From positions 267 to 64,266 of the forward strand of contig JBLHKV010000001.1 of NCBI GenBank assembly GCA_047618115.1: a stretch of DNA of 64,000 bases, read 5' to 3'. Both the position numbers and the translations under genes were made by a program. The stretch is from Halieaceae bacterium. Its GTDB lineage: Bacteria; Pseudomonadota; Gammaproteobacteria; Pseudomonadales; Halieaceae. A model generated the notes under the pieces. It ran no database searches, had not been told where the DNA came from, and worked only from the letters and a program-made list of their open reading frames with translations. Shown here in pieces: positions 1 through 64,000 of this stretch. The stretch's first letter is position 1. Every line of letters starts with the position of its first letter.

Positions 1-474
1 TGCGGCGATCAATTCGACCAGGGTTTCACTGGCGAAACCTGGGTGCTTCGCTTCTTCAGCAAGACGATGTAGCAGTACCTGCAGATTCCGCTCCCGAATA
101 TCCAGGCCAGCGAGCAGCCCTCGATCCGTCCACTCCAGCTCGCAGTCCAGCCAGGTATTGGTGCGCTGGGGATCGAATTCGCAGACAAGCGATTCCTGCT
201 CACAGCAGCCATCACTGACTGACTGCATGGACTCTCCCGGTGGCACCATGAAAATGTTGCCAATGCGCTCAAAACTTCGAGCGCCTGAGCGGCCGGGATA
301 ACGCCCCCGCGCGTTACCTGGGCGGGGAGTGAGGCACAAATCGACGCGGTAGCTGTCCTTTTCCTCAGAGATGCTATCCACGGGCTCAGCAAATTTGAAC
401 CTCACTAGTTGAGCAGTCGCTATGGGCGCGACCAGCTCACCTTCTACGGTCATGACATGTTTTTCAGGAGACAT
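1..474 (-). CDS. AraC/XylS-family transcriptional regulator, N-terminal (non-HTH) part; 3' end runs off the window
   Basis: Hand translation of the minus strand from the ATG at 474 gives an uninterrupted 158-codon frame down to position 1 (MSPEKHVMTVEGELVAPIATAQLVRFKF..YRVDLCLTPRPGNARGRYPGR..IGNIFMVPPGES..LLAGLDIRERNLQVLLHRLAEEAKHPGFASETLVELIAA). It is absent from the supplied track because it is open at the window edge. Track ORF 9..392 is a different frame. The family call is by resemblance only; the HTH would lie outside the window. Confidence 0.55.
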   Translation of the reverse strand, partial: MSPEKHVMTVEGELVAPIATAQLVRFKFAEPVDSISEEKDSYRVDLCLTPRPGNARGRYPGRSGARSFERIGNIFMVPPGESMQSVSDGCCEQESLVCEFDPQRTNTWLDCELEWTDRGLLAGLDIRERNLQVLLHRLAEEAKHPGFASETLVELIAA

Positions 475-589
475 AATATCTGCCAAATTTAATAATCAAC
501 GTTGTTGGCTATAAAGTGTAGCACCGATACTTGCAATCGGGCAAAAAAAGTCTCTGATGCTGCCGCTGCACTAACGGCTTATTGATGCA

Positions 590-937
590 CTAGTCATCTG
601 CTGTTGCACGGACAATCGTGAGATGTCGCGCCGATTCGGCGTGAGCTGGTTCGTCATCTCCCTGGATCTCTACCGCCAACGATATGTGCGCCAGACTGAG
701 GACCAGGTCCATCAGACGCAGTTCCTTTTCATCAAGCTGGTCGAGCGACTTTTGGTCGAGCAGATCAAGTGCGGCGGGGACTAAATCCTTACCAGCATTG
801 AAAAAACTGACCCGCTCGCTCTCTTCACTTTTGAGTCGCTGCTGCAGGCGATTATTGGCTCCTTTGATCAGCCAATAGTCAATAAAAGATTCCAGCGCTT
901 CGAAGCCGACTGGCAGGCGTGGGCTCGAATGACTCAT
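590..937 (-). CDS. hypothetical protein (115 aa), translationally coupled to the Rieske oxygenase
   Basis: Track ORF. Its ATG overlaps the oxygenase stop by 4 nt (ATGA at 934..937). Acidic sequence with no motif I recognise. Confidence 0.5.
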   Translation of the reverse strand: MSHSSPRLPVGFEALESFIDYWLIKGANNRLQQRLKSEESERVSFFNAGKDLVPAALDLLDQKSLDQLDEKELRLMDLVLSLAHISLAVEIQGDDEPAHAESARHLTIVRATADD

Positions 938-2133
938 TGCTCAGCAGTTCCATTTTTCAGCTCGGCTTTATAGGCTTGTACCCGCTGGTCGACCTGGTTA
1001 AATAAATGCCTGCACAGCACCTCCTGGGATTGGAAGTGCAGGTGTGACAATGCGCCGCTGGCTAACCCTCGATGACCAGCTTCAATCACAGCACGATCCT
1101 CGCAGTGAATATCCAGTGCAGTGGCCATGGCATATTCGCGGGCAAAACGCTCGGAGGCGGTGTCGTCCTCGCCATTCCAGTACAAGCGAATAATGCTGCG
1201 AGTTTTATTGGCAGCAATGGGCACAATAAGCTGGGAGAACGGTGTCATCGCCGCGCCCAGGATAAACAGGTTGGGGAAGATGCCGAAATATTCCTTGTCC
1301 TGAAGATTGTAGCCGGCCTGCATTGCATGGCGGGCACCTTTACCAAATGCAAATGCCTGAAACGGCCGTAGTTCGGCATCCGGATTGGACCAAATAGTTT
1401 GGCTGCGATGCGGGTCGTAGAATCTATACCGAACCGGATAGCCATAGGGATTCTGCGGGCCACCGGCGGCCTCTCCTGAGCGCGGGTGAATAAATCGGAG
1501 GTGGTAGTTCTCCTGAAAGTTGTCATAGGTCAGCTTCCAGTTGGCATCGACCTCATAGATGTATTCGGAATAGTTGGTGGCTTTTGCATGGGGTAGTTTT
1601 TCCAGCTCCGGCACCAGCGGGCCGAGGTATTCCTTGAGCGTTTGCTGTGGCGACTTGTCCAGATTGATAAAAATAAAGCCGGCACAGACGCCAACAGATA
1701 CAGCAGGCAGGGAGCAGTTTGAGGGATTGGTATAAAACTTGTCAGCTTCGGGGGCCGAGAGCAGCTTGCCCTCATTGGAAAAAGTCCAGGCATGGTAGGG
1801 GCAGGTAAAACGGGAGCGCTTACCACTGTCGACCTGTACCAGCTCAGTGCCCCGGTGGGGGCAGACATTGTGAAACGCTCGAACTTCGCCATCCCGATCG
1901 CGGGTAATCAGCAAAGAAGTATTACCCGCTTCAAAGGGACGGACGATAAAACTGCCTGGATCAGAAATTTCACAGCTATGACCGATCTGAATCCAGCTGC
2001 GCTTAAAAATGGCCTCCCGCTCCAGCTCAAAGTATTCGGGCTGGTAATAGGGTTCTGTTGGGATGGGGTCGGTGCCGACAAACGCCAGGTCTTCTTTGGG
2101 TACGGGCTCGAAATGTTGGTTTTTTACAGTCAT
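934..2133 (-). CDS. Rieske [2Fe-2S] non-haem-iron oxygenase, catalytic alpha subunit (no beta subunit adjacent)
   Basis: 399 aa. Rieske motif C-x-H-x17-C-x2-H (NVCPHRGTELV...RFTCPYHAWTF). Mononuclear-iron region NFQENYHLRFIHP. Confidence 0.9.
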   Translation of the reverse strand: MTVKNQHFEPVPKEDLAFVGTDPIPTEPYYQPEYFELEREAIFKRSWIQIGHSCEISDPGSFIVRPFEAGNTSLLITRDRDGEVRAFHNVCPHRGTELVQVDSGKRSRFTCPYHAWTFSNEGKLLSAPEADKFYTNPSNCSLPAVSVGVCAGFIFINLDKSPQQTLKEYLGPLVPELEKLPHAKATNYSEYIYEVDANWKLTYDNFQENYHLRFIHPRSGEAAGGPQNPYGYPVRYRFYDPHRSQTIWSNPDAELRPFQAFAFGKGARHAMQAGYNLQDKEYFGIFPNLFILGAAMTPFSQLIVPIAANKTRSIIRLYWNGEDDTASERFAREYAMATALDIHCEDRAVIEAGHRGLASGALSHLHFQSQEVLCRHLFNQVDQRVQAYKAELKNGTAEQ

Positions 2134-2207
2134 CGCAGTATCCCCACCGGTGTTCTTTGTTTCTTTGTGTTGCCGCAGTCTTGCTAAAAATTACAACACC
2201 CTCGTCG

Positions 2208-2351: not shown

Positions 2352-2939
2352 ATGTCAGCACCAGATAGAACAAGCCAACGCCGCAATAAATGTTTTGATG
2401 AGACCCATCGGAGCATGATTAAAACCTCGGCCGGCCTGATCGCCGAGAAGGGGATAGAGTCTCTCTCAATAGCGGCCTTGGCCAGGTCGATGAGTATCAA
2501 CCGAACCACCGTGTACTACCACTTCGACAGTAGAGAAAAGCTGATCGATGAAGTGAAGACCTGGTCCTCCGATCAGCTCGCTCAAGCCTTTCGGCAGGAT
2601 ATGACGCGCCAGGATCGCATAGAGCATATCTATCACTTTGTGCTGGACAATCCCGAGCTGATCAAGCTGTGGCTGGACGACCTGATGTCTGTGGGTGATA
2701 TACGCCAACTGTACCCGCACTGGAATGAGCTCGTGAATGGGATCCGGGAACATTTTCTGGGCTCGGACCTTGAGGGGACTATTGACCCGGAGGTCTTCTG
2801 CGTCAACTTGCTGACTAGTGCCTTTGTTGGGCCCAGAGTCTTCAAGCACAGCGTTTGCCCGACCGCCGACAATGAGGCGGTGGTCCAGCGCTTCAAGGCA
2901 GAGAGCATGCGCATGTTAGCAAGCCTGTCTCTCGCCTAA
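2352..2939 (+). CDS. TetR/AcrR-family transcriptional regulator
   Basis: 195 aa. The N-terminal HTH region SIAALARSMSINRTTVYYHFDSREKL is typical of TetR. The gene is divergent from the oxygenase gene. Confidence 0.85.
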   Translation: MSAPDRTSQRRNKCFDETHRSMIKTSAGLIAEKGIESLSIAALARSMSINRTTVYYHFDSREKLIDEVKTWSSDQLAQAFRQDMTRQDRIEHIYHFVLDNPELIKLWLDDLMSVGDIRQLYPHWNELVNGIREHFLGSDLEGTIDPEVFCVNLLTSAFVGPRVFKHSVCPTADNEAVVQRFKAESMRMLASLSLA

Positions 2940-2998: not shown

Positions 2999-3919
2999 AT
3001 GAGGTTGGGGTTTTCAATGCCGCATATGCTGCGGATAAAGGCAATAACTCAGCCCTGGGAAGCGCATGTGACTGGAGCAGATCAGACACGCCTAGCGAAG
3101 CTGGCGGAAAAACTGGGTTACGAGATGATAGCGGTACCCGAACACTTCCTTGTGCCGCAGGAACACCGGGAGCTGTCCGGGCCGCATTATTTTAATGCCT
3201 CCAGTGCCATGGCTTACTGGGCTGGTGCGACCGAGAAAATTCGGGTCAACAGCTGTATCTCTATTTTACCTTTGCAGAACCCCATCATCACAGCCAAAGC
3301 ACTTGCCACTATGGACTGGCTCTCCAGTGGTCGTGTCACCATTACGTTTGCAGTCGGCTGGTTGAAAGGTGAATTCGATGCTATGGGTGTCGACTACCAT
3401 CAGCGCGGTGAGATCAGTGAGGAATATATCCAGGCTATCATCGAGCTGTGGACTAAAGAGAAACCCGAGTTCGAGGGCAAATACGTTTCCTTCCGAGACG
3501 TTGCCTTCGAGCCCAAGTGCTTCCAAAAACCGCATCTCCCTATCTGGTTTGGAGGTGATGCTGATGCCGTATTAAAGCGCACTGCACGCTATGCCACCGG
3601 TTGGTGGCCCTTCCTCACCAAACCCGAAGATATCCCAGCCAAGATCGACTTTATTAAGTCGCAGCCGGACTACAAAGGCAAGTTGACCGATATTTTCTAT
3701 GGTTTTGCTACCTCTCGTGTTGGAGATGGCCACGTTGTGCAAACAGACCCGCGCGCCAGACCCGGCATGACCAAGCAAGAAATTATCGACCGCCTCTGTT
3801 GGCTCATGGATATGGGTGTCACATGGAGTTCAGTGCCGATACCGCGAGTGAAGCACATAGAGGACTATTGTGATTACACGCAGTGGGTTGCCGAAGAAAT
3901 CATGCCTGTGGTTAAGTGA
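2999..3919 (+). CDS. luciferase-like (LLM class) flavin/F420-dependent oxidoreductase
   Basis: 306 aa. MRLGFSMP..LAKLAEKLGYEMIAVPEHF..SGRVTITFAVGW..PIWFGG.. is the pattern typical of LLM TIM-barrel oxidoreductases. Confidence 0.8.
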   Translation: MRLGFSMPHMLRIKAITQPWEAHVTGADQTRLAKLAEKLGYEMIAVPEHFLVPQEHRELSGPHYFNASSAMAYWAGATEKIRVNSCISILPLQNPIITAKALATMDWLSSGRVTITFAVGWLKGEFDAMGVDYHQRGEISEEYIQAIIELWTKEKPEFEGKYVSFRDVAFEPKCFQKPHLPIWFGGDADAVLKRTARYATGWWPFLTKPEDIPAKIDFIKSQPDYKGKLTDIFYGFATSRVGDGHVVQTDPRARPGMTKQEIIDRLCWLMDMGVTWSSVPIPRVKHIEDYCDYTQWVAEEIMPVVK

Positions 3920-3992: not shown

Positions 3993-4792
3993 ATGGAGAC
4001 CACAATGTACAAACTTGGCATTCACCACATGAGCGCGCTGGAAGCGGATCCGCTCTCCTTCGTTTCCCTTGTCGCAGAAGCGGGCTGCAATGAAATATCC
4101 GTATTCACGCAAGCACCCGGGTCCAGCTCAAGATTTCCTCTGGTGACAACGCAAAACCTTGTCGGCATGAAGGCGAGATTGGAAGACAACGGTATATACG
4201 TTACCAATGTCGATGCATTCATCATTAGCCCGACACAGATATCGCAGCCTTCAGGCCTGCCCTGGAACTTGGTGCCGAACTGAGTGCCCGCGGTGCGGTG
4301 ACTATCGTCTACGACGCTGATGAATCTCGTGCAATCGATTCCCTAGGAGCCCTGTGTAACGTGGCAGAGCCGCTGGGCCTGAAGATCGCCATCGAATTCG
4401 TGGCCGTCACTCCTGCCTGGAATACGCTGGCGAGCGCAGCGGAGCTGGTGACCAAAATCGGACACCGCAACCTCGCCCTGGATATCGATATTTTACATCT
4501 AGCGCGTTCGGGAGGGACGCCAGCAGATGTGGCAGCACTTGAATCTCGCCTGATTGCACACGCACAACTCAGTGATGTTGCAGACCTCACGGCTACCGCT
4601 GATTACGGCGAGGAGGCTGCAGCCAACCGTGTTACTCCCGGTGATGGCGTATTCCCACTGGATGCATTCCTGCGAGCACTGCCCAAGGGAACCCCGCTGG
4701 AACTGGAAGTTCCCCAGCCACCAGACCGGCCCGCTATAGAGCGCCTTCGACATGTAGTAACCGCTACACGGCAGCTGCTAGACGCCCTGTAG
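3993..4792 (+). pseudogene. xylose-isomerase-like TIM-barrel (sugar phosphate isomerase/epimerase family) gene split by a 1-nt frameshift near 4229-4232
   Basis: Track ORFs 3993..4283 and 4298..4792 are the two halves of one protein of about 266 aa. Frame 0 reads ..NVDAFIISP and then nonsense to a stop at 4283. The next frame opens after the TAG at 4226-4228 and reads DTDIAAFRPALELGAELSARGAVTIVYDADE.. into the second ORF. The joined protein is collinear with the intact paralog at 47778..48596 (ELGAR region; R-x-PGDG-x-PL motif). Confidence 0.7.
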
Positions 4793-4838: not shown

Positions 4839-5984
4839 TCAGGACTTGACCGGGATTGCAAAGCGCTCGCAATAATCCTTATACCGCTCGCGAATTTGCT
4901 CCTTGTTTAGCCCGTAATCCTCTAACGAATAGGCATGACTGCCGTGCTTACCCTTGGGGTTGTCCTGAATATAGCGATTCATTGCAGTTTCGGCTTCTGC
5001 GGTGAAAGGCTCATCGAAGTGCTGGTAGACCTTTCTAATTTCCTCAATCGGGTCGCGCATAACATCCGCGTATTGAATGTCGCAGATTGAATCCCAGCCG
5101 TGCTTTTCCTTGTAGGCCAAGGTGCGCGCAATCATTACATCAAAAGTTTCCAGTAAACTTTGCCCGATGACCTTGGGGTCGACATCGTCACTGAACATCG
5201 GGCGCACGGTATTGACCAGACTGCAGGCAGATCCGACAACATCGACAGGGTCGCGGTGCGTCATAACCAACTGGGCGTCGGGGTAGATTGTGGTGAGTTC
5301 CTTGAGATAGAGCGGGTGCCATGGATTTTTCAGTGTCCAGCGGCCGCCGGTCTGAGCTTGTAATAACTGCAACAGGCGCTTGTGATATTGGAAGGCTGGC
5401 AGATAGTCCGCTTCGTGGAGAAACCATTGATGGTAACTCGGAATATCGTACATCGAGTCATAGTATTGTGCGACGAACGAAGGCGACATCGAAAACTGGC
5501 ACTCGGTCGGGCTGTCGGCGTCCTCGTGATGAATGGCTGAAATATGGGGCGCATATTTAAGCGACATTTCAATCTGTGCCTGGCTGGCCTCGTAGCGCGG
5601 CCCCCCATGCAGTTCAGATGTTTGGGGCGGCGGCACCGAATCAAACGCCTCCCAGCGCAGAAAAGACCGGCGGGAAGGATCGGCACTTAGAAGGTTGATC
5701 GCCAGTGTCGTACCCGTGCGCGGCAGGCCGAACACAAACAGGGGCTTTTCAATTGGCCGCTCCAGCACATGCGGATGCCGCGCCAGATAATCCTCTACCT
5801 TCATACGGTTTGCCAGCGTTGCGATCAGATTAGCCTGCACGCTCTGTGTTCCGCGATCAGTGAGCTTCGCCTCACTATTAAGCGCATCGACGAGGCGACC
5901 CAGCGCCTCCAGAATACCGTCATCGCCAAGCTGGCTCAGACCGGTTTGCTGCTGCGCGGCGGCGATTAGTTCGTCAACTTGCAT
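4839..5984 (-). CDS. PAPS-type sulfotransferase family protein (paralog 1 of 3)
   Basis: 381 aa. 5'-phosphosulfate loop GLPRTGTTLAINLL. 3'-phosphate region LVMTHRDPVDVVGSACS. No signal peptide. Confidence 0.85.
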   Translation of the reverse strand: MQVDELIAAAQQQTGLSQLGDDGILEALGRLVDALNSEAKLTDRGTQSVQANLIATLANRMKVEDYLARHPHVLERPIEKPLFVFGLPRTGTTLAINLLSADPSRRSFLRWEAFDSVPPPQTSELHGGPRYEASQAQIEMSLKYAPHISAIHHEDADSPTECQFSMSPSFVAQYYDSMYDIPSYHQWFLHEADYLPAFQYHKRLLQLLQAQTGGRWTLKNPWHPLYLKELTTIYPDAQLVMTHRDPVDVVGSACSLVNTVRPMFSDDVDPKVIGQSLLETFDVMIARTLAYKEKHGWDSICDIQYADVMRDPIEEIRKVYQHFDEPFTAEAETAMNRYIQDNPKGKHGSHAYSLEDYGLNKEQIRERYKDYCERFAIPVKS

Positions 5985-6266
5985 AGTATTTTCCCCGATC
6001 AGTTATGCGCTTTGGAGGAACGCTACGACCATAGTGACACGGAATCCGGATACCTGATTTTTGCACGGCCACCCAGGGCCTGACAATGTTAATCGGCTTC
6101 GAAATCGGGCCGGCTATCGACATGCGGCCATGTGTCCCGGTCGATGCACTGCGGCCTGTAGTCGACACAGTTATTGATTGTGACGAGGGCTCACGTTTCC
6201 TACACTGGGAGATCTCTGGGTCGCGCAAAGCCACGACTCTTATTTACGATCTCACTGGAGGTAATA

Positions 6267-7076
6267 ATGTCCAAGGGTTTATTTGATCTGAGCGGTAAAG
6301 TCGCACTGGTTACCGGGGGCAACAGCGGACTTGGCCTGGGCTTTGCCCGGGGCATCGCCAAACAGGGTGGAGATGTAGTGATATGGGGCCGATCTCAGGA
6401 AAAGAATACTATCGCAGTCGATGAGCTGCAGGCACTGGGCGTGCGCGCTTCCGCACGCGCTGTCGATGTCTCCTCACAGGACGAGGTTATCGCCGGCTTT
6501 GAAGCACTGATGGCTGAATATGGACGGATCGATACCGTGATCGCCAATGCGGGCATGCCACCCAACACGCGCTCCATTCTGAGCACCAGCAAGGAGGACT
6601 ACCTAACCCTTCTGGGCACCAATATGCACGGGGCTTTTTACACACTGCAAGAGGGTGCCAAGTTGATGGTCACTCGAGCCGAAGCCGGTGAACCCGGGGG
6701 CTCACTGATTTTCTGTGGCAGTCTGTCAATTTTTCAGGGCGTACCCGGTATCGGCCCCTATGCTGCAGCCAAAGGCGGCATCAGCGCGGCACTGCGCTGT
6801 ATGGCAGTGGAACTGGGTCAATTTGGTATTCGCGCCAATACCATTGCCCCAGGATACGTCAAGAGCGGTTTTGCAGGCGGCACCCAGGACGGAAAAATTC
6901 TGCCTGAAGAGGAATGGAATGATATCGACAAGCTCTTTGCCGGAAAAGGCGCCATCAAGCGGCCCGGTTTCCCGGAGGATTTTGAAGGCGTTGCCGCCTA
7001 TCTCGCCAGTGATGCCTCCCGCTGGCACAGCGGGGATACCATTGTGATCGACGGTGCATCCCTGATACACATTTAA
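6267..7076 (+). CDS. short-chain dehydrogenase/reductase (SDR)
   Basis: Start re-called to the ATG at 6267, preceded by GGAGG (6258-6262). MSKGLFDLSGKVALVTGGNSGLGLG (TGxxxGxG). The track ORF 6174..7076 carries an unsupported N-terminal extension. Confidence 0.9.
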   Translation: MSKGLFDLSGKVALVTGGNSGLGLGFARGIAKQGGDVVIWGRSQEKNTIAVDELQALGVRASARAVDVSSQDEVIAGFEALMAEYGRIDTVIANAGMPPNTRSILSTSKEDYLTLLGTNMHGAFYTLQEGAKLMVTRAEAGEPGGSLIFCGSLSIFQGVPGIGPYAAAKGGISAALRCMAVELGQFGIRANTIAPGYVKSGFAGGTQDGKILPEEEWNDIDKLFAGKGAIKRPGFPEDFEGVAAYLASDASRWHSGDTIVIDGASLIHI

Positions 7077-9961: not shown

Positions 9962-10010
9962 TTCTATGCCATAGAGTCCGTGTGGTTTCGCTACAATGTC
10001 AGAGCTTTGG

Positions 10011-10790: not shown

Positions 10791-10934
10791 ATTATTCTCC
10801 GTCATTAAGCGATTAAACTGGGGCCTGCTTGAATTTTTTACCCCGTGACGTTTATATCCCAACCGCCAATACTATGCAACAGTGTTGTTGATCTATATAC
10901 TACTGAGGTTATAACACCGCAGGAGCGCACGAGC

Positions 10935-12490: not shown

Positions 12491-12500
12491 GGCCAGCGCT

Positions 12501-15878: not shown

Positions 15879-15898
15879 AGTACCCGCGAGTACCCGCG
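15879..15898. repeat. perfect tandem duplication AGTACCCGCG x2
   Basis: 15879-15888 is identical to 15889-15898. It lies inside the 570-bp non-coding stretch 15505..16075. Confidence 0.9.
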
Positions 15899-15932
15899 CC
15901 ACCACTATTGACACACTCGGCCTCATTTACTA

Positions 15933-16849: not shown

Positions 16850-16925
16850 ATGCAGGTAGCCGATCCCAACGAATCGCGGGGTAAACCTATACGAAAACCC
16901 GAGTAATTACTCCCGGAGGTTCCGA

Positions 16926-51910: not shown

Positions 51911-51984
51911 GCGCTCGCCGCAACCTCAACCTTTTTACGCTAAACAACATGCTGCTTCGGCGCTTGAGAAATTGAAGGAAAAAC

Positions 51985-52722: not shown

Positions 52723-52807
52723 GCGGAATTTAAATGAAGATGGACGAGAACTTTAATTTTATTTAAATCACTGACAGTTGATAACCCGGTTATCGAGAGG
52801 GAAACAC

Positions 52808-54277: not shown

Positions 54278-54313
54278 GGAATCCCGAGGAAGCTATAGCT
54301 TCTTGCCGCTGGC

Positions 54314-57370: not shown

Positions 57371-57383
57371 TTCTGAATTTTTC

Positions 57384-58451
57384 CTAAGCAAGGTTTTTCA
57401 TTAACAGATCGGCAAGCCCGAGCTCATAGCTGTCGTGACGCCTGCCTAAATGTTCGTTCAGCAATGCGCGCTTAAGAAACAAATGACAGTCGTGCTCCCA
57501 GGTCATACCAATTCCTCCGTGCAGTTGCAGAGATTCTTCTGCCACTGCGGCAAAAGCTGAACAGGCCAGCTGCTTCGCTGCGCGGGCCTTCATTTCAACA
57601 CGCTCATTCACCATCACATCGCCTGTGGCGTCCACGGCACTTGCAATGCTGTCCTGTAACAATGCCAGCGCTCCCTCAGTTGCCGCTTGCAGATCGGCAC
57701 ATCGATGTTTCAGGGATTGGAACAACGCCAGGGGGCGCCCAAACTGCTCTCGGGTCTGCAAATATTCCACAGTCATTTCCAGCAGCGCCGCAGCGCCTCC
57801 GACAGAATCTGCGGCAAGTGCAAAGTCACGGAGGATCAACAGTTGCTGGCTCATTTGCTGCGCCGCTTCACCTTCGGCAAGTACAAACTGTGGATCCAGC
57901 ACAAGGTCAGTGACCTGCAGATCATACAGCCGTCGGGTGACATCCCAGGTAGGGCGAGGCGTTAGCGTAACGTCGGCTTGCTTTAGATCAACTAAAGCGA
58001 CGCAGCCAGCACCTGCAGTTTCTATCAGCACGTGACCGGCACGATCCGCACTAGGAATAGCTTCGGCGGTACCGCTAAGTGTTAATTCCCCGTTGTCTCT
58101 AGCCGCAATAGTAAAGAACGACTCTCCCAGCGAAGCTGTCACGCGCCGCTCGCCAGACATCATGCTACCCAGCCACTCTTCATGCTGAGCCAATGGACTG
58201 CGCGATACTGCATCTATTGCAAGTATTTGAGGTAAATAGGGAATGGTAGCCAGACCGCGGCCAAGCTCACCGTGCAGAGCGGAAGCACCTGCCAGACCCA
58301 TACCAAGACCACCCAGCTCTTCAGGTGCAGACACCATCAGCCAACCGAGATCCGCTATCAGCGACCAGCTTTCGTCCTCGGCCGCTGCAAGGCCCAAACC
58401 ATTAACCACCTGGCGGGCGGAATCGTTTAGTTGAATGAGTTCGGAGTCCAT
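57384..58451 (-). CDS. acyl-CoA dehydrogenase family protein, short subunit (355 aa)
   Basis: ACAD-like C-terminal half (..LQLHGGIGMTWEHDCHLFLKRA..). 4 nt downstream of a full-length ACAD. Confidence 0.8.
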   Translation of the reverse strand: MDSELIQLNDSARQVVNGLGLAAAEDESWSLIADLGWLMVSAPEELGGLGMGLAGASALHGELGRGLATIPYLPQILAIDAVSRSPLAQHEEWLGSMMSGERRVTASLGESFFTIAARDNGELTLSGTAEAIPSADRAGHVLIETAGAGCVALVDLKQADVTLTPRPTWDVTRRLYDLQVTDLVLDPQFVLAEGEAAQQMSQQLLILRDFALAADSVGGAAALLEMTVEYLQTREQFGRPLALFQSLKHRCADLQAATEGALALLQDSIASAVDATGDVMVNERVEMKARAAKQLACSAFAAVAEESLQLHGGIGMTWEHDCHLFLKRALLNEHLGRRHDSYELGLADLLMKNLA

Positions 58452-58455
58452 TACC

Positions 58456-59658
58456 CTACCCCTTCAGTTGCCAGCTACGCGGCTCTCGCGGCATGCCCAG
58501 CATTCTCTCTGCAATGATATTGCGCTGAATCTCGTCACTGCCCCCGGCAATTGACCAGTTGTAGGAATTCATGAAATCGACTGTCCAGTTACCGGTTTCC
58601 TGCGTTGCTCCGCGCATAAAACCAGTATTGTACTGCCCCTCAAGGCCCGCAACGCGTTTGCCCAGCGAAACGAACTCGCGAAGCGTTCGCGCGTAATACA
58701 ATTTGACGATCGACGCATCTCCCGGGGCTTCTTGACCCGCTATTCGCTTAAGCAAATAGCGATCAGCCAGCGCACATGCGGCGTCAACACGCGCAATCAG
58801 TTTACCAAGATCACGACGCAGGGCTGTATCGTCCAACCGCTCACTTATGCGCATCTCGTCCACGATCAATGGCAGGGAGTAACGCATGCGCTGACTCAAC
58901 TCCACCAACGTTAGCCCACGTTCTGACGCCAGTGTTGCCTGCGCGACGGCCCAACCTGCCCCCTGCTCTCCTACCCGGTCAGCAACCGGCACTTCGACAT
59001 CGTCAAAGAAGATCTCCGCAAATTCATCGTCGCCGGTGATTTGTGAGATTGGCCGTACCGTGACACCTTTGGCCTGCATATCGAGCAATAAATAGGTGAG
59101 CCCTGCCTGTGGGCGATCGCCCTTGTCAGTGCGCGCCAGCAACAAACAACGGTCGGCGTACTGCGCCATCGTCGACCAGGTTTTCTGGCCGTTGATCACG
59201 TACCTATCGCCGCGCAACTCAGCTCGGGTTGTAACGGAGGCGAGATCGGACCCGGCATTGGGTTCTGAAAAGCCCTGACACCAAATTTCACCCGCCTGAA
59301 TCCCCGGTAGATAACGCAACTGTTGTTCGGTAGATCCACACTCAAACAGCGTACACGCAGCATGATAAAGAGCGACAAAATAGAGGATCAACCGAGGAGC
59401 ATCGGCACGGGCAACTTCTTCATAAATGATTTTTTGTTGCGCTAGTGAGCGCCCTCCCCCAGGCCAACCTTCAGGCCAGTGCGGTGTGGCATAACCGGCA
59501 GCGACTAACTGGCTAAACCAATCCTTTTGCCCATTAAAAAAAGCTTCTTGCTCAGTATTGGTCATAGCGCCGCGCCAACCCGAGTCGACATTGCGAGCCA
59601 ACCAGTCACGGACTTCCAGCCTTAAAGGATCTGTATTACTTTGCGTGCTCAACGCCAA
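58456..59658 (-). CDS. acyl-CoA dehydrogenase, long subunit (400 aa)
   Basis: WCQGFSEPNAGSDLASV and the C-terminal IAGGSDEIQRNIIAERMLGMP. The track start at 59658 is a TTG that overlaps the upstream gene by 23 nt, so the start is uncertain. Confidence 0.88.
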   Translation of the reverse strand: MALSTQSNTDPLRLEVRDWLARNVDSGWRGAMTNTEQEAFFNGQKDWFSQLVAAGYATPHWPEGWPGGGRSLAQQKIIYEEVARADAPRLILYFVALYHAACTLFECGSTEQQLRYLPGIQAGEIWCQGFSEPNAGSDLASVTTRAELRGDRYVINGQKTWSTMAQYADRCLLLARTDKGDRPQAGLTYLLLDMQAKGVTVRPISQITGDDEFAEIFFDDVEVPVADRVGEQGAGWAVAQATLASERGLTLVELSQRMRYSLPLIVDEMRISERLDDTALRRDLGKLIARVDAACALADRYLLKRIAGQEAPGDASIVKLYYARTLREFVSLGKRVAGLEGQYNTGFMRGATQETGNWTVDFMNSYNWSIAGGSDEIQRNIIAERMLGMPREPRSWQLKG

Positions 59659-59968
59659 TGACCTCGTAAACCGCTGCGTAGCTATTTGGCCTGTCGATGG
59701 AATCAGACATGGTTAAAACTCCGGATTGGGCTTTATCCACAAGGCTTGCCAAGACAGCGTCGATGTCGTCGGTCTCGATTTCATACTCCACCATACATGA
59801 GTAAGTTGTGCGGTCTCCCAGCGTTCTGGCCAAACGAGAACGCTTTGCTGATTCGATTCCATCCAACGCAACCAACTCCGGAAGGTGCACATCCTCATAC
59901 CATTGATTGTACTCGTCCTCTCTTCCCTCAACGGGATCACTCATTACCACCATCTTGTAGTGAGCCAT
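59636..59968 (-). CDS. EthD-like dimeric alpha/beta-barrel protein (110 aa)
   Basis: MAHYKMVVMSDPVEGREDEYNQWYEDVHLPELVALDGIESAKR. Same signature as both halves of 51122..51910. Confidence 0.65.
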   Translation of the reverse strand: MAHYKMVVMSDPVEGREDEYNQWYEDVHLPELVALDGIESAKRSRLARTLGDRTTYSCMVEYEIETDDIDAVLASLVDKAQSGVLTMSDSIDRPNSYAAVYEVIGVEHAK

Positions 59969-59969
59969 G

Positions 59970-60821
59970 CTATTCCTCGCCTGCAGAGTGTGTTTTTGTT
60001 TCCTGCCCGAAAAGGGGAGCGCGCTTCTCCTGGATAGCCTTCACCGCCTCCCTGTGATCGGCGGAGCGAATGGTTTGCGCCTCATAGGCAAGCCCTTTAT
60101 CAAGGATGGCATGAGTGACGCGCTTCAGTTCCTCATTGAGAATAACCTTGGTGTAACGAATCGCCTGTTGCGCACCGGCCAGCAGACGATTGCAATAGTC
60201 ATCCACCCCAGCGTCAAGCTCTGTTAGTGGAAGGCAGTAATTGATGAGGCCGATCTCAGCCGCTTTTGATGCTGTCAGTAATTCGCCGGTAAGCAAGAAT
60301 TCCTTTGCGCGACACAAGCCTATCCGCTGCGGCCAGATGGCTGCGCCTCCATCACCGGCCACCAGGCCAACCGATACGTGTGGGTCGCCGATTTTTGCAA
60401 TGTCTGCCGCAAAGATCATGTCGCAGTACAGAGCTAGTGTGGCACCAAGGCCAACTGCATGTCCGTTCAAACGACAGACAAGAGGCTTTTCCAAATCCAA
60501 TATGGAAAAAATTATGCGTTTGGCCAGACGCACTTCTTCATCAAAGAGATCAGGGTTTTGCGCATTGTTGCGCAAATGATCCATGTCGCCACCTGCGGAA
60601 AAAGCGCGTCCTTTGCCGGTAAGCACCACCACATCACTGTGTTCGTCGGTGGCGGCAAACGTAAACACTTCCGCCAACTCCTCGTGCAATCGAAGGTTAA
60701 TGGCATTCAGTGCATCGGGTCTGTTCAGCGCAATGGTCAACAATCTTCCGCGTCGCGACAGTGCCAAAGTGTCGTAGCCCGGAACCGGCTGCGTGTTTTG
60801 TTCGCTCACTTTATCGCTCAT
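59970..60821 (-). CDS. enoyl-CoA hydratase/isomerase (crotonase) family
   Basis: 283 aa. VVVLTGKGRAFSAGGDM and the oxyanion-hole region GHAVGLGATLAL. Confidence 0.9.
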   Translation of the reverse strand: MSDKVSEQNTQPVPGYDTLALSRRGRLLTIALNRPDALNAINLRLHEELAEVFTFAATDEHSDVVVLTGKGRAFSAGGDMDHLRNNAQNPDLFDEEVRLAKRIIFSILDLEKPLVCRLNGHAVGLGATLALYCDMIFAADIAKIGDPHVSVGLVAGDGGAAIWPQRIGLCRAKEFLLTGELLTASKAAEIGLINYCLPLTELDAGVDDYCNRLLAGAQQAIRYTKVILNEELKRVTHAILDKGLAYEAQTIRSADHREAVKAIQEKRAPLFGQETKTHSAGEE

Positions 60822-60877
60822 TTAGCCCAGTCGTTCCTTATTTCTATTGCAGTAAGTGTGCAGCGCGCCGTTAGTAC

Positions 60878-61795
60878 TTATGCATCGCCAGTGTCAGCAA
60901 AACAGTGCTGGGCAACCGCCTCGGCCTGTCCCCCACGACCGCCCAATTCACTGAGTAAAGCCTTGATGCGATAGGTCCATAGATGCAGGGACATTTCCAG
61001 GGTCATGCCCATGGCTCCCATCATCTGATGGAGATCGTAGTTGATCTTGTTAGCGCTGTCTTGAGCTTGAAATGCTGCCAGCGCCGCATCACCCGCATCG
61101 CCAGTCCAGGCGGCCTTCAGGGCAAGACGTCGCACACCCCCAACCAACACCGCGCATTCCGCCATACGATGACGCAGAGCCTGAAAACTGCCCAACTCCC
61201 TGCCAAACTGTTTGCGCACACTTAAATGTTCGACTGTTGCGTCGATGCCGGCCTGCATTAACCCAGCAATCTCCGCTGCACATGCCACCCTGATCCAGGT
61301 GCGCACCAGCTCAGATTGCTCTGAGGACAATGCTTTTACAGATAGCTTGCCCGTCACTCGCCCCATGGGATAAGCGTAAAGGGATTCAACCGACTCAACG
61401 TCACTCGGCTCTGGATGAGCGATGCCAATGGCGTCGCCATCGATGACAATCAGGGTTTTGGCGCTATCCACAAAACGTCCGGGACGCCCATTTTCGACGA
61501 CCGCCAATGGACGCGGCAATGCTATATCCAGGTGTGGGCGCAGCAGCATCGACAGAGCCGTTTCAACGGTGCATGGCGCCCTGGCAATTCGCTCTACCGC
61601 AAGCGCCGCCGTCACCGCTCCCATTTCGGGAATGGAGGCTATATCGAAATAGCCGCCGTTTTCCAACTCCTGTTCGAGCTCAGGGCTTTCCAGAGCAAAG
61701 CCTTCAAACTCTGTGGGTACATGTTCGAACTGTCGGCCGAGGCGATCAATAGCATCGAGAACGGCGCCCTGATCAGAATCCAGTGTGAAATCCAT
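60878..61795 (-). CDS. acyl-CoA dehydrogenase family protein, short subunit (305 aa)
   Basis: ACAD-like helical C-terminal domain (..RKQFGRELGSFQALRHRMAE..). Its ATG shares 1 nt with the upstream ACAD stop (TGATG at 61793..61797). Confidence 0.78.
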   Translation of the reverse strand: MDFTLDSDQGAVLDAIDRLGRQFEHVPTEFEGFALESPELEQELENGGYFDIASIPEMGAVTAALAVERIARAPCTVETALSMLLRPHLDIALPRPLAVVENGRPGRFVDSAKTLIVIDGDAIGIAHPEPSDVESVESLYAYPMGRVTGKLSVKALSSEQSELVRTWIRVACAAEIAGLMQAGIDATVEHLSVRKQFGRELGSFQALRHRMAECAVLVGGVRRLALKAAWTGDAGDAALAAFQAQDSANKINYDLHQMMGAMGMTLEMSLHLWTYRIKALLSELGGRGGQAEAVAQHCFADTGDA

Positions 61796-62931
61796 CAGCG
61801 CGGCTCCCGTGGTAATTCAAGTAACTCTGTGGCGATGAGGTTCAACTGAATCTCAGCTGCGCCCGAAGCGATACCGGCGACGATGGCACGTTGATGATGC
61901 GCCTGCAGCATAGCGTCACCACCCGCCAGGGCGTCGGGAACATGTTCCACCACAAACTCGGCCACGAGACGCTCCGCATTAACTGTCCCAAACCGCACTG
62001 CACTGGCCTCCGGCCCGGGGATCTGCCCGTGACAACGCTGGTCAATAATATTGTAGCTGCCAAGGCGCGAGGCCTCGCAGGCTGCATGCGCCCGCGCCGC
62101 CTGATCTATCGCGCTACCGCCAAAGCGATCTTCACGTTTAAGTACAGCCACGGCTCGGTGCAACATGCGCGATGCCAGTGCAAAGCGCGGAATCCCCACT
62201 CGCTCCAACGCCAGAGCTTCACGCACGATACTCCAGGCTTGACCCTCTTTACCGAGCATTGATGTAATCGGCACTTCCACATCGTCAAAGAACACTTCGT
62301 GAATGTCACCCTGACCTATGATGCTGGGGATTTGTCTGACCGTGATACCCGGGGTCTCCATGGGTATCAGCAAAATAGAAATTCCTCCCTTGCCCTGGGA
62401 AGTGCGAGCCAGCAGGAAACAGGTATCTGCCCGGCCCGCGTAGGAGGTCCAAATCTTTTGTCCATTGACTCGATAAATGTCACCGTCGAGTTCTGCGCGG
62501 GTGCGCAGGGAAGCCAGGTCGGAGCCGGCTTCAGGCTCGGAGAAGCCCTGGCACCAGAGCGTCTGCCCCTGAGCCATGGGCGGAATATAGCGTGCCTGCT
62601 GTTCCTCAGAACCAAAGCGCATGAGGGTCGGGCCGATCCAGTTTACGTTCATATACTGGCCGCCACGCGGCTCACCCGCCGCCCACATCTCCTCCGCGAG
62701 GATGAAAGAAGCCCAGGGGTCGGCGTCCCGGCCACCCCATTCTTTCGGCCAATGGGGAACCAGCAGGCCCGCCTCGGCCAGAGCGCCACAAAACTGCTTC
62801 GAGAAAGTGGATTGTGCATCCGATCCCGGACCATGGGCCACTTGCTCCCAATCCGTGGGCAGGTTGTTTTCGAGAAATGTTCGAACGCTTGAGCGAAAGG
62901 CCCGCTGTTCTTCGTTCCAGTCAAAATTCAT
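61795..62931 (-). CDS. acyl-CoA dehydrogenase, long subunit (378 aa)
   Basis: WCQGFSEPEAGSDLASL. C-terminal IASGAAEIQLNLIATELLELP. Confidence 0.9.
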   Translation of the reverse strand: MNFDWNEEQRAFRSSVRTFLENNLPTDWEQVAHGPGSDAQSTFSKQFCGALAEAGLLVPHWPKEWGGRDADPWASFILAEEMWAAGEPRGGQYMNVNWIGPTLMRFGSEEQQARYIPPMAQGQTLWCQGFSEPEAGSDLASLRTRAELDGDIYRVNGQKIWTSYAGRADTCFLLARTSQGKGGISILLIPMETPGITVRQIPSIIGQGDIHEVFFDDVEVPITSMLGKEGQAWSIVREALALERVGIPRFALASRMLHRAVAVLKREDRFGGSAIDQAARAHAACEASRLGSYNIIDQRCHGQIPGPEASAVRFGTVNAERLVAEFVVEHVPDALAGGDAMLQAHHQRAIVAGIASGAAEIQLNLIATELLELPREPR

Positions 62932-62973
62932 CGGGTACAGCTCCTGTGCAGAGTCAACGGGGGCGACAAGCGC

Positions 62974-63786
62974 TTATGTGTCTTCACTTTTATCGCCCAG
63001 CTTCTTAATATAGCGGTCGATACCTGCAAGGTAGTCCGGGTTGAGCATCAGCGCACTATTGGCCATGCGCTCCACTTGCCTGGCTTGGGCGAGGCCTACG
63101 TCGTGGGCGAGTTCGATAGCAATCTTGGCGGTACCCATCTGCTCACTGTGTTGCTTGGCGAGGTGGCGACAGAACTCCATGGCTTCTTCTTCGAAAGTTT
63201 CGTCAGCATACACCTCGTGTACCAGACCCATCACGTAGGCCCGATCTGCATCGGCAGGGAGATTCGCCATGATGAGATAACGACTCCAGTGCGTTCCAAT
63301 AATACGTGCCAGGCGGCTAACTCCATTGGACGCAGGCAGAACCCCAAATTTGCCCTCGGGGAAGGCGTAGCTGGCACTCTTTGCAGCCAGACGAAAATCG
63401 CAGGACAGTGACAGTTCTAAACCACCGCCCACACAGGGCCCCTGGTGAGCCACGACGATTGGCTTCTCTATGTGCTCCATCTCATCGTAAATCCGGTGCA
63501 TCCCGTGCAGCCGCAGCCTGTGCTTTTCACGGATAGCCCCACCACTTAGCGCAGGAGCTTCGGGCTCACCCGAGCGGTCGTGAAGATCCGCTCCAGTACA
63601 GAAATAACGACCCGTAGCCCGAATGAGCATAACCTTAAGCGTTGGAGTATCGCGCAACTTGTGCACAGCGTCCTCCAACAAGGCCATGGTTTGCCCACTG
63701 AGCGCATTGAGCTTGTCAGGACGATTCAGGGTGGCGATAAGAATCGCGCCCTCTTCTTCTACCAACAGGTGTGGAGCTTCCGACAT
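62974..63786 (-). CDS. enoyl-CoA hydratase/isomerase (crotonase) family
   Basis: 270 aa. LIRATGRYFCTGADL and QGPCVGGGLELSL. Confidence 0.9.
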   Translation of the reverse strand: MSEAPHLLVEEEGAILIATLNRPDKLNALSGQTMALLEDAVHKLRDTPTLKVMLIRATGRYFCTGADLHDRSGEPEAPALSGGAIREKHRLRLHGMHRIYDEMEHIEKPIVVAHQGPCVGGGLELSLSCDFRLAAKSASYAFPEGKFGVLPASNGVSRLARIIGTHWSRYLIMANLPADADRAYVMGLVHEVYADETFEEEAMEFCRHLAKQHSEQMGTAKIAIELAHDVGLAQARQVERMANSALMLNPDYLAGIDRYIKKLGDKSEDT

Positions 63787-63800
63787 CGTGATTTTCTCCC

Positions 63801-64000
63801 TTAGCCGCGAGTTCTTGGCAGTCCCAGATTGCGCTCGGCAATCTGGCTCCGATGCACCTCGCTGGTGCCGCCGTAAATTGTGGTGCCCTGAGCGTGACGA
63901 TAGGCCAGGTTGAGTTCCCCGGCCGCACCCTCGCGCTTTGCCAGCGAATCCGGTGCCGTCAGGTCCAGCAGATCTCTGGAATCAGATAAAAACTTCTCGG
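63801..64000 (-). CDS. acyl-CoA dehydrogenase, C-terminal end (5' part outside the window)
   Basis: Hand translation of the minus strand ends ..AQGTTIYGGTSEVHRSQIAERNLGLPRTRG-stop (TAA at 63801-63803). This is the canonical ACAD C-terminus. It is not in the track because it is open at the window edge. Confidence 0.8.
   Translation of the reverse strand, partial: EKFLSDSRDLLDLTAPDSLAKREGAAGELNLAYRHAQGTTIYGGTSEVHRSQIAERNLGLPRTRG

Follow-up and report, generated by a model that had tools for sequence, protein, structure and literature searches.

Sulfotransferases and short alkylsulfatase-like proteins in a putative lipid-catabolic locus of a Halieaceae bacterium: a possible role for sulfation in catabolism

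The stretch of DNA analyzed here (the window) comprises 64,000 nucleotides of contig JBLHKV010000001.1 (positions 267 to 64,266, forward strand; assembly GCA_047618115.1) from a metagenome-assembled genome of a marine Halieaceae bacterium (Cellvibrionales). Annotation of a non-overlapping set of open reading frames (ORFs), comprising about 56 genes, against Pfam and NCBIfam identified three sulfotransferases (ST1, ST2, and ST3), two type I sulfatases, and one protein with a metallo-beta-lactamase (MBL) domain and an Alkyl_sulf_dimr domain (Table 1). These six sulfate-ester genes had been recognized in a first-pass annotation made from the letters alone and were confirmed by Pfam profiles and motifs. 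They sit among oxidative and beta-oxidation genes, of which a recount gives approximately 34 rather than the roughly 45 first estimated.

The three sulfotransferases are members of the Sulfotransfer_3 family and share only 30-32% pairwise identity. Residues 3-379 of ST1 align with residues 30-410 of Stf9 from Mycobacterium avium (2z6v; 5e-73), and ST1 also matches Stf1 of M. tuberculosis (2zq5; 4e-52), while CurM-type sulfotransferase structures were not among its sequence matches. All three proteins carry a THRDP(x6)S region, and ST1-ST3 all keep the residues that, at 3'-phosphoadenosine-5'-phosphosulfate (PAPS)-binding and putative catalytic positions, are conserved in at least 95% of 93 family members. 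These are the R-T/S-G-T-T loop, Glu161/162/168, Lys219/227, and HRDP..S. An N-terminal signal sequence was found in none of the three, and both PAPS-binding regions are retained in each, as had been read from the sequence in the first pass. Judged from their sequences, the three Stf1/Stf9-type PAPS sulfotransferases are intact and cytoplasmic.

A search with a sulfotransferase alignment against one genome per GTDB species returned 80 loci, and every ORF in these loci was compared with the window proteins (genomic loci compared with the window are labeled L020, L033, and so on). The hosts comprised Halieaceae, Porticoccaceae, and other Cellvibrionales, many Novosphingobium, Sphingobium, and Sphingomonas, and members of Steroidobacter, Nevskiales, Phenylobacterium, Verrucomicrobia, Myxococcota, and Acidimicrobiia. 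Homologs of the window catabolic genes were detected in 76 of the 80 loci, and the most common conserved neighbor of the sulfotransferase was a short, alkylsulfatase-like MBL gene (~415 aa) lacking an SCP2 domain, found within 5 kb in 50 loci. Within the same distance, homologs of a window zinc-dependent alcohol dehydrogenase (ZnADH) were identified in 43 loci and homologs of the window short-chain dehydrogenase/reductase (SDR) SDR1 in 59, both counts including all blastp matches with E <= 1e-10, down to approximately 25% identity. An AraC-family regulator was positioned between the SDR and the sulfotransferase in 36 loci.

The recurrent unit reads MBL <- ZnADH <- SDR, divergent from AraC -> sulfotransferase, and is often flanked by genes for an acyl-CoA ligase, a CoA-transferase, and SDR2. 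Other frequent flanks are a DUF35-SCPx-DUF2889-Amidohydro_2 block, SDR5, and KstD-like genes. All of these flanking genes are also present in the window, where they are 53-88% identical to the copies in syntenic loci, and the window version of the synteny runs ST1 / SDR1-ZnADH ... SDR2 / CoA-transferase-ligase. SDR1 and ZnADH are 45-83% and 61-80% identical, respectively, to their close homologs in such modules, and SDR2, the CoA-transferase, and the ligase are 63-88% identical to those in L020, L033, L041, L045, L047, L051, and L055-L058. In related genomes (L020, L033, L051, and L057), the place occupied by the exported carboxylesterase of the window is taken by the short MBL gene. The AraC-family regulator is truncated by the window edge; its full-length homologs (29-64% identity) carry HTH_18/HTH_AraC domains. 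Recurrence of this arrangement across genera indicates that it does not reflect chance co-location, which was set aside on the basis of the conserved synteny. In 28 loci, a VOC/Glyoxalase_4 protein of ~155 aa is encoded directly downstream of the sulfotransferase (e.g., L027 11165-11629 and L023 11178-11642). The window contains none of the VOC/glyoxalase-type, CMD-family, and 349-aa hypothetical module genes seen in other loci.

A neighbor-joining tree resolved the sulfotransferases into four groups: an ST2 clade, a 'module' clade that includes none of the window proteins, an ST1 clade, and an ST3 clade. Members of the ST1 clade adjoin CoA-transferase, Amidohydro_2, and SDR genes, and orthologs of ST2 (58-82% identical) lie beside an MBL gene, mostly together with AraC. 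ST3 belongs to an operon with a luciferase-like monooxygenase (LLM), a xylose-isomerase-like TIM barrel, and a DUF1214 protein. Members of two other orders have all four genes in the same arrangement, LLM-sulfotransferase-TIM barrel-DUF1214: Hydrocarboniphaga, at 77/64/56/67% identity, and Pseudomaricurvus HS19, at 83/75/54/71%. In L168 and L169, counterparts of the second acyl-CoA dehydrogenase (ACAD) pair and of a hydratase of the window border the ST3 operon (68-79% identity). A Sphingobium plasmid from a tomato-root group carries distant homologs (sulfotransferase 27-31% and DUF1214 25% identical): a series ZnADH-sulfotransferase-TetR-Baeyer-Villiger monooxygenase and, in its vicinity, genes for TIM-barrel and DUF1214 proteins and a 'steroid delta-isomerase'.

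These data bear on an alternative explanation, namely that the sulfotransferases are ordinary biosynthetic enzymes, serving for example a sulfated envelope lipid, and only happen to neighbor catabolic genes. The known functions of the family are biosynthetic, as with Stf3 and sulfomenaquinone, and a homologous ST domain ends a Planktothrix polyketide synthase. Yet the same catabolic synteny extends over at least six orders and several phyla. The three modules that are conserved, their common control by AraC, the translational coupling, and a lack of biosynthetic genes nearby also speak against it. Of the explanations weighed here, this already disfavored one appears to us the most improbable, and a purely biosynthetic role was set aside given the conserved catabolic synteny.

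The MBL proteins that partner the sulfotransferases comprise ~410-420 aa. Residues in an alignment of 169 family members were read against SdsA1 and Pisa1. The first His of the HxHxDH motif is Gln and the equivalent of SdsA1 Glu299 is Asn in 169/169 members, and the His ahead of the NL(Y/L)T motif is Pro in all of them. In 38 of the 169, Asp-His is furthermore replaced by Asn-Gln, such that the motif overall reads QxHx(D/N)(H/Q). The bridging Glu and the last His are kept in all or nearly all members. In the HNLxTxRGxxxR segment, both Arg are invariant, Thr is present in 167/169, and Asn in 144/169; these Asn/Thr/Arg/Arg residues are presumably the ones that bind sulfate in the Pisa1 structure. 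The window member carries TQCHGDH and PNLYTIRGDKIR, the latter corresponding to the N-L-x-T-x-R-G-x-x-x-R segment, and ends after the dimerization domain, such that at 416 aa (versus 630-670 aa) it is missing the third domain of type III alkylsulfatases. When the window protein was modeled with AlphaFold (pLDDT 84.6) and the model was compared with PDB folds, the best match was the inverting sec-alkylsulfatase Pisa1, followed by SdsAP, YjcS, and SdsA1. The top 13 matches were all alkylsulfatases or uncharacterized YjcS homologs. The TM-score normalized to the target was only 0.44.

SdsA1-type enzymes have a three-domain architecture and a binuclear zinc site with the ligands HxHxDH, Glu, Glu, and His (PMC5426288). 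The short MBL proteins share with SdsA1, SdsAP, and Pisa1 (type III; SulfAtlas S2) the MBL and dimerization domains and the N-x-x-T-x-R-x-x-x-x-R segment. They differ in having no SCP-2-like domain, in length (~415 versus 630-670 aa), in their degenerate zinc set, and in being mostly cytoplasmic and paired with a sulfotransferase. Because two defining features of alkylsulfatases, the C-terminal domain and the full zinc set, fail, we file the family as 'alkylsulfatase-like' rather than as a member.

Several observations link the short MBL proteins to the sulfotransferases beyond their frequency as neighbors. In several loci, the MBL gene follows the sulfotransferase gene within 0-22 nt, and the two are often translationally coupled. 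In a reverse test, 2/2 module-type MBL genes that were looked up have a sulfotransferase within 5 kb, 4 nt away in one case. Among 52 adjacent pairs, pairwise identities of the sulfotransferases and of the MBL proteins are correlated (r = 0.82), and for the two large sulfotransferase clusters (47/52 pairs), the partners of each come exclusively from its own MBL clusters and have its own type of metal motif. In these adjacent pairs, the Asn-Gln variant occurs only beside sulfotransferases of the ST2 clade. Both sulfotransferase clusters occur within Novosphingobium, suggesting that the pairs were inherited, and duplicated, as pairs. A signal peptide was not found in the partner MBL proteins of the sulfotransferase loci, which places them in the same compartment, the cytoplasm, as the sulfotransferase. 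The first-pass annotation had separated a periplasmic desulfation from a cytoplasmic sulfation; this separation fails for the conserved pair.

The conservation and co-divergence of a mostly cytoplasmic sulfotransferase-MBL pair argue against a futile cycle, against sulfation for export (part of one role considered earlier), and against unrelated biosynthesis. Two other roles suggested earlier for the sulfotransferases, activation of a hydroxyl for elimination and stereo-inversion of an alcohol, gain support from the frequency of the MBL neighbor, from the co-divergence, and from Pisa1 as the best fold match. The reading that we favor, with a confidence that stops a little short of calling it probable, is that cryptic sulfation is a catabolic step in a widely distributed alicyclic-lipid regulon, with Stf-type sulfotransferases as pathway enzymes. 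We infer from the genes that the product of the sulfotransferase is the substrate of the MBL protein, and likewise how the second step proceeds chemically and to which class the substrate belongs. In the first step, a cytoplasmic sulfotransferase would use PAPS to esterify an intermediate with sulfate at a hydroxyl. This hydroxyl could be native, or could be generated by an esterase, a P450, or a monooxygenase of the luciferase-like or Baeyer-Villiger kind; the links to LLM, Baeyer-Villiger-type, and P450 monooxygenases and those to esterases suggest hydroxyls that form in the course of the pathway. In the second step, a dedicated partner enzyme would remove the sulfate through cleavage of the C-O bond. 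The usual partner would be the short, SCP2-less MBL protein of the alkylsulfatase family, and in the ST3 operon the TIM-barrel and/or DUF1214 protein would take this part. A secondary alcohol would thereby be inverted, or an alkene would form by elimination, outcomes that are otherwise hard to achieve on unactivated or tertiary alcohols. Given the weakened metal site of the MBL proteins, elimination would be as possible as inversion and might, speculatively, be most useful on tertiary or otherwise non-oxidizable alcohols. The adjacent ZnADH and SDR would then process the product.

A more general form of this proposal, which we regard as rather doubtful, is that bacteria of many lineages use PAPS sulfation to activate hydroxyls that are non-oxidizable or lack an activating neighbor, and that reduced-metal MBL proteins (in the second module, the TIM-barrel and DUF1214 proteins) expel the sulfate. 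Candidate hydroxyls would be the tertiary alcohols that may result from Baeyer-Villiger or P450 attack next to the quaternary carbons of steroids, hopanoids, and terpenoids, and the MBL proteins would act as cytoplasmic sulfo-lyases or inverting sulfatases.

The same pairing of a sulfotransferase with a cytoplasmic sulfatase-like protein would be needed if the sulfate were instead a temporary handle that keeps a hydrophobic intermediate soluble and trapped, or that masks a hydroxyl, until the MBL protein hydrolyzes the tag. Lipophilic substrates are implied by the P450s, the ACAD pairs, and SCPx/DUF35, and CoA thioesters provide a similar handle in the same pathway. The existence of at least three sulfotransferase clades with their own partner sets (MBL; TIM barrel/DUF1214; Amidohydro_2/CoA-transferase) fits several distinct chemical steps better than it fits one tag. 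Furthermore, the structurally characterized relatives of the MBL proteins reportedly cleave the C-O bond, so removal of a tag at a secondary carbon would alter its configuration. We consider a handle function unlikely.

Several points weigh against sulfation as a catabolic step. The coupling of sulfotransferase and MBL protein is a prediction from gene neighborhood. No window sulfotransferase adjoins the window MBL gene, whose clade may be exported, and its orthologs in L084 and L085 have no sulfotransferase within 10 kb. With the metal site altered in every member, the family may comprise non-hydrolases or mere ligand binders. PAPS is costly, and epimerization by way of a ketone needs only two dehydrogenases, a number that the sulfotransferase module itself contains. 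The gene content of the window names no single substrate, and the core 9,10-seco steroid genes are absent from it. Lastly, ST2 is co-transcribed with exported sulfatases, which a coupled sulfotransferase-MBL step does not explain.

The window MBL protein has two possible starts. From ATG 57370 it would comprise 457 aa with a lipoprotein-like signal, MHRLQKFSACLLSVALCGC; from the in-frame ATG 57247 it would comprise 416 aa, and this start is preceded by a perfect AGGAG-N6 Shine-Dalgarno sequence, fits the N-termini of homologs, and is the one used in the public gene call. Signal-like in-frame extensions were identified in 7 of the 39 closest homologs among the matches listed (66-82% identical). 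Export of the window MBL clade is therefore plausible, its lipobox is uncertain, and both exported and cytoplasmic isoforms may be made. Of the signal peptides and lipoboxes claimed in the first pass, those of both sulfatases, the esterases, and the pyrroloquinoline quinone (PQQ) dehydrogenase stood, and that of the MBL protein became doubtful given the alternative start. The window MBL clade is nearest to the MBL proteins that partner the ST2 clade (55-56% identity). Orthologs of the window protein that are 68-70% identical lie in the order MBL -> KstD-like, with genes for an aldehyde dehydrogenase, SDR6, the 262-aa protein, a ferredoxin, SDR5, a P450, DUF35, and SCPx.

Both type I sulfatases have hydrophobic, signal-like N-termini and resemble AtsA-type arylsulfatases of Pseudomonas aeruginosa with an extra C-terminal part of ~200 aa, and the two are 37% identical to each other. 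Junctions of -4, -14, and +3 nt in the series sulfatase 2-HSD-ST2-sulfatase 1 (HSD being a 3beta-hydroxysteroid dehydrogenase-like protein) indicate that ST2 is translationally coupled to the upstream HSD-like gene and the downstream sulfatase 1 gene. The HSD-like protein is HpnA-like and SdmB-like, in both cases under the NCBIfam cut-off. ST2 lies within an eight-gene same-strand array that extends from the thiolase to the esterases, with the hydrolases at 22653-26614 as its tail. A promoter and terminator scan of the ST2 operon returned sites that were no more numerous than in shuffled sequence. Among the window ORFs there was no Pfam family of formylglycine-generating enzyme (FGE) or anaerobic sulfatase-maturating enzyme (anSME), although such a maturation enzyme may be encoded elsewhere in the genome.

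The interpretation made in the first pass was that the locus is specialized for the uptake and degradation of sulfated sterols, bile-alcohol sulfates, or further sulfated lipids. On this view, desulfation would be periplasmic and the sulfotransferases would be accessory, acting in re-sulfation, control of an inducer, or detoxification and export. The translational coupling of two exported CxPxR sulfatases to ST2 and the HSD-like gene is consistent with such a function, as are the exported esterases, the PQQ dehydrogenase, the TonB receptor, a weakly OATP-like major facilitator superfamily (MFS) transporter, and the frequent signal-like extensions in the window MBL clade. Comparative data point the other way. 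A type I sulfatase was detected within 5 kb of a sulfotransferase in 1/80 loci, and when the two sulfatases were used as queries in a metagenome scan, none of the 80 sulfatase loci recovered (35-50% identity) had a sulfotransferase, MBL, or HSD neighbor (0/80). The ortholog of ST2 at 82% identity lies beside AraC and MBL genes without sulfatases, and the regulon is found in soil and freshwater taxa that lack such sulfatases. Moreover, co-expression of a cytoplasmic sulfatase-like partner with the sulfotransferase speaks against sulfation for export. The co-conservation proposed as a check in the first pass accordingly held for the sulfotransferases with the catabolic genes and not for the type I sulfatases, which were rejected as conserved partners of the sulfotransferases.

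The rarity of type I sulfatases near sulfotransferases suggests that the sulfatase-ST2 operon is lineage-specific, and the arrangement looks like a recent acquisition particular to this lineage. It fits a periplasmic stripping of sulfate and acyl conjugates, which leaves the presence of the sulfotransferases unexplained. Since the sulfatases are not conserved partners and the widespread regulon occurs mostly without exported sulfatases, a dedication to bile-alcohol sulfates or sulfated sterols could at most be something that this lineage has added, and as an account of the whole locus we judge it improbable, about on a par with the handle. Under a catabolic role for sulfation, the exported sulfatases, esterases, PQQ dehydrogenase, and TonB receptor would be additions of this lineage, with the probable task of freeing the substrate from its sulfate and acyl conjugates in the periplasm.

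If sulfate esters are imported, the sulfotransferases could also run in reverse or act as sulfuryl shuttles, passing sulfate from the ester to adenosine 3',5'-bisphosphate (PAP) or another acceptor, thereby desulfating the substrate and conserving activated sulfate for assimilation. The sulfotransferases and a possible sulfate-ester importer (the MFS transporter) would meet on the cytoplasmic side, and TauD-family genes lie near the sulfotransferase in L174 and L168. Transfer from an alkyl sulfate to PAP is thermodynamically unfavorable given the group-transfer potential of PAPS, none of the loci examined showed a link to cys genes, and the conserved MBL partner would be unexplained. We regard a shuttle as very improbable.

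Comparison with characterized systems provides precedents for parts of the proposed catabolic sulfation. Stf1 (Rv3529c) and Stf9 share with ST1 the family, the full-length architecture, and the PAPS motifs. Rv3529c is encoded inside the cholesterol catabolic cluster of M. tuberculosis, beside an oxidoreductase, and is annotated as a conserved hypothetical protein; one study described a role for Stf1 in inhibiting TLR2 signaling. In the literature that we found, no catabolic role had been proposed and no MBL partner reported for Stf1 or Stf9. The window sulfotransferases, in turn, are proteobacterial and fall into at least three separate clades. On a plasmid of Mycolicibacterium madagascariense (L172, 8974-11966), genes for a sulfotransferase, an SDR, and a 345-aa hypothetical protein are arranged in the order of Rv3529c-Rv3530c-Rv3531c, surrounded by P450, ferredoxin, SDR, FMN-monooxygenase, NTF2, and aldehyde dehydrogenase genes. 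The mycobacterial hypothetical protein downstream of the sulfotransferase and SDR had no Pfam match and no homolog in the window.

Stf3, one of four named sulfotransferases of M. tuberculosis, sulfates an isoprenoid lipid alcohol that is hydroxylated by the neighboring P450 CYP128, yielding sulfomenaquinone. We take Stf3 to be homologous to Stf1. The logic of a P450 followed by a sulfotransferase is that proposed for the first step here. For Stf3, however, the sulfate ester is the end product, whereas the conserved sulfate-ester-processing partner implies that it is an intermediate here.

Sulfate serves as an enzymatic leaving group in the olefin synthase/CurM system, in sorghum LGS1, and in aziridine formation. 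As proposed here, sulfation in these systems is followed by elimination or ring closure. All of them are biosynthetic, and their second step is spontaneous or is carried out by a thioesterase or other enzymes, never by an MBL protein. CurM-type sulfotransferase domains are part of a polyketide synthase and adjoin a thioesterase, unlike the stand-alone window sulfotransferases, which have neither nearby. A catabolic precedent for esterifying a non-oxidizable hydroxyl before its elimination is reportedly provided by Sterolibacterium denitrificans, in which anaerobic cholesterol degradation is said to activate a tertiary alcohol of the side chain at the expense of ATP and then to eliminate it. 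That system differs in transferring phosphate from ATP, in its unrelated enzymes, and in being anaerobic.

Nothing in the literature searched describes sulfation being put to such a use in catabolism. Biosynthesis and conjugation are the roles ascribed to sulfotransferases. A conserved catabolic role, if true, would be a type of step new to the bacterial breakdown of lipids and steroids, the sulfate equivalent of phosphorylation-elimination, and would explain the removal of unactivated hydroxyls. Three uncharacterized families would also gain functions: the short MBL proteins, those with DUF1214, and the Stf1-type sulfotransferases, among them Rv3529c of the M. tuberculosis cholesterol region. 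For biocatalysis, pairs of a sulfotransferase and an inverting sulfatase would be attractive as a means of dehydrating alcohols or inverting their configuration. Culturable strains that carry the modules belong to Novosphingobium, Halioxenophilus, Pseudomaricurvus, Steroidobacter, and Solimonas.

The substrate is plausibly steroid-, bile-alcohol-, or terpenoid-like, or another alicyclic isoprenoid lipid. Such an alicyclic lipid would fit the ACAD pairs (alpha2beta2-type), DUF35/SCPx, and the KstD-like, HSD-like, SnoaL, and CYP150-like genes. The catabolic genes listed in the first pass were all recovered with Pfam or NCBIfam, namely two P450s, a ferredoxin and its reductase, the KstD-like and 3beta-HSD-like proteins, an SDR of subfamily PRK12428, two long/short ACAD pairs, two crotonases, a thiolase, the DUF35-SCPx pair, a CoA-transferase, and a ligase. 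The TonB receptor, the MFS transporter, the exported esterases, and the PQQ dehydrogenase were likewise found. The toolkit resembles that of clusters for aerobic 9,10-seco steroid catabolism in M. tuberculosis, Comamonas, and Sphingomonads in its alpha2beta2-type ACAD pairs, DUF35 and SCPx, KstD-like protein, HSD-like SDRs, SnoaL-type protein, and P450s with redox partners. In contrast to those clusters, none of the ring-opening genes KshA/KshB and HsaA-D/TesA-D was found among the window ORFs with Pfam or NCBIfam, in agreement with the first pass, and the KstD-like protein falls under the curated cut-off (648 bits against NF009478, cut-off 789) and also resembles cyclohexanone-carboxylate desaturases. 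The only Rieske oxygenase of the window, which the first pass had missed, is of the Ring_hydroxyl_A type and is not KshA; its alpha subunit and the small partner ORF recur as a pair near sulfotransferases in L031, L044, L045, L059, and L080. Comparison of the P450s did not fix the substrate, with matches to CYP150A6 for P450b and to CYP130, Vdh, and CYP125 (~1e-55 to 1e-61) for P450a. The steroid-degradation literature that was searched made no mention of a sulfotransferase, and none of the papers searched tied such an enzyme to the catabolism of steroids or terpenoids in proteobacteria, to strain Chol11, or to tomatine-degrading Sphingobium.

Table 1. Features identified in the window, with their positions, strands, and supporting matches.
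Feature	Position	Strand	Evidence and remarks
AraC-family regulator, N-terminal part, cut by window edge	1-486	-	Regulator of the conserved sulfotransferase module
Rieske oxygenase alpha subunit	934-2133	-	Rieske 3e-19, Ring_hydroxyl_A 3e-28; small partner ORF 590-937
TetR regulator	2352-2939	+	Pfam
Luciferase-like monooxygenase LLM1	2999-3919	+	Pfam
Xylose-isomerase-like TIM barrel, two frames	3993-4283 and 4298-4792	+	Pfam
ST1	4839-5984	-	Sulfotransfer_3 3e-40, 139 bits (cut-off 27); PRTGTT loop
SDR1	6174-7076	+	Pfam; divergent from ST1
Zn-dependent polyol-type alcohol dehydrogenase (ZnADH)	7102-8112	+	Pfam; divergent from ST1; CGICGSD and GHE zinc motifs
Exported carboxylesterase	8147-10042	-	COesterase 5e-96
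SDR2	10011-10862	-	Pfam
Family III CoA-transferase	10845-12161	+	Pfam
Acyl-CoA ligase	12441-13997	+	Pfam
P450a, SDR3, SnoaL_4 protein, 2Fe-2S ferredoxin, second TetR	within 14290-22474		Pfam
TonB-dependent receptor	17455-19995		Pfam
CYP150-like P450b	20001-21275		CYP150A6 (6dcd) match 3e-115
Two exported alpha/beta hydrolases: Abhydrolase_10; tannase-like with PKD domain	22653-26614	-	Pfam, signal-like N-termini
Type I sulfatase 1, 798 aa, exported	26758-29154	-	Sulfatase 2e-65, 221 bits; CSPSR; 1hdh 6e-85
ST2	29158-30306	-	Sulfotransfer_3 2e-37, 130 bits (cut-off 27); VRTGTT loop
NAD-dependent 3beta-HSD/epimerase-like	30293-31333	-	Epimerase 2e-25, 3Beta_HSD 1e-16
Type I sulfatase 2, 801 aa, exported	31330-33735	-	Sulfatase 3e-60, 205 bits; CSPTR
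2-oxoacid-dehydrogenase acyltransferase domain, thiolase, ferredoxin reductase, exported PQQ alcohol dehydrogenase, MFS transporter	33762-40613		Pfam
Of these, acyltransferase domain and thiolase	33762-35829	-
Of these, MFS transporter	39246-40613	+
SDR4, Amidohydro_2, DUF2889-like, SCPx-type thiolase, DUF35 (ChsH2-type OB fold), SDR5	40642-46035	-	Pfam, NCBIfam
DUF1214 protein (ST3 operon)	46492-47727	-	Pfam
TIM barrel (ST3 operon)	47778-48596	-	Pfam
ST3 (ST3 operon)	48682-49851	-	Sulfotransfer_3 8e-28, 99 bits (cut-off 27); PRSGTT loop
LLM2 (ST3 operon)	49857-50975	-	Pfam
262-aa conserved protein	51122-51910	+	Matches neither Pfam nor NCBIfam
SDR6 and aldehyde dehydrogenase	between 51122 and 55993		Pfam
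KstD-like FAD dehydrogenase	54314-55993	-	NCBIfam
Short MBL/alkylsulfatase-like protein (ORF)	55997-57391	-	Lactamase_B 3e-12, Alkyl_sulf_dimr 1e-16; no SCP2 domain
Two long/short ACAD pairs, two crotonase-type enoyl-CoA hydratases	57384-63786	-	Pfam

The GC content of the window is ~0.54 and even along its length, and scans of the window for tRNAs and against Rfam returned no matches. The regulators comprise two TetR proteins and the truncated AraC protein, and three exported alpha/beta hydrolases are encoded in addition to the TonB receptor, the MFS transporter, and the exported PQQ dehydrogenase. NCBIfam provided no equivalog-level name for any sulfotransferase, MBL, Amidohydro_2, or DUF1214 protein or for the 262-aa protein. 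The second ORF of the TIM barrel near ST1 covers only profile positions 98-240, indicating that the gene is frameshifted, a pseudogene, or affected by mis-assembly of the metagenome-assembled genome.

Other blocks of the window are conserved as well. The block at 40642-46035 is kept at 53-83% identity in L041, L058, L064, and L087, and its SDR5, which the first pass had described as 3alpha-HSD/CR-like, belongs to subfamily PRK12428 (296.8 bits against a cut-off of 242). The block at 51122-55993 is syntenic with L084 and L085 at 66-83% identity, and the 262-aa protein (71-75% identity) always adjoins SDR6 and the KstD-like gene (L084, L085, and L087). The 2-oxoacid-dehydrogenase acyltransferase domain comprises 247 aa and stands alone, without a lipoyl or E1/E3-binding part; its pairing with a thiolase is kept in L033, L045, and L087. 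OATP proteins carry steroid sulfates and bile salts in animals, and the MFS transporter of the window has a weak Pfam match to this family. MFS genes with a weak or faint OATP match were also observed near MBL or sulfotransferase genes in L085, L087, and L174.

The DUF1214 protein of the ST3 operon shows uncommonly high conservation, being 65-78% identical to its best 120 matches (Halioglobus 73%, Pseudomaricurvus 72%, and Hydrocarboniphaga 68-70%). A PDB fold search with its predicted structure (pLDDT 81) returned only the uncharacterized structural-genomics entries 6ANS, 3U07, and 2P3Y, and a literature search on DUF1214 returned nothing functional. The TauD-family dioxygenase genes near sulfotransferases lie at 4497-5357 in L174 and at 1-354 in L168; this family includes type II alkylsulfatases. 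Lastly, a type I polyketide synthase of 2510 aa encoded on plasmid p1 of Planktothrix agardhii ends in an Stf-type sulfotransferase domain (L171, 8001-9131). This domain is 28% identical over its full length and may represent an activating or off-loading sulfotransferase unlike the CurM type.

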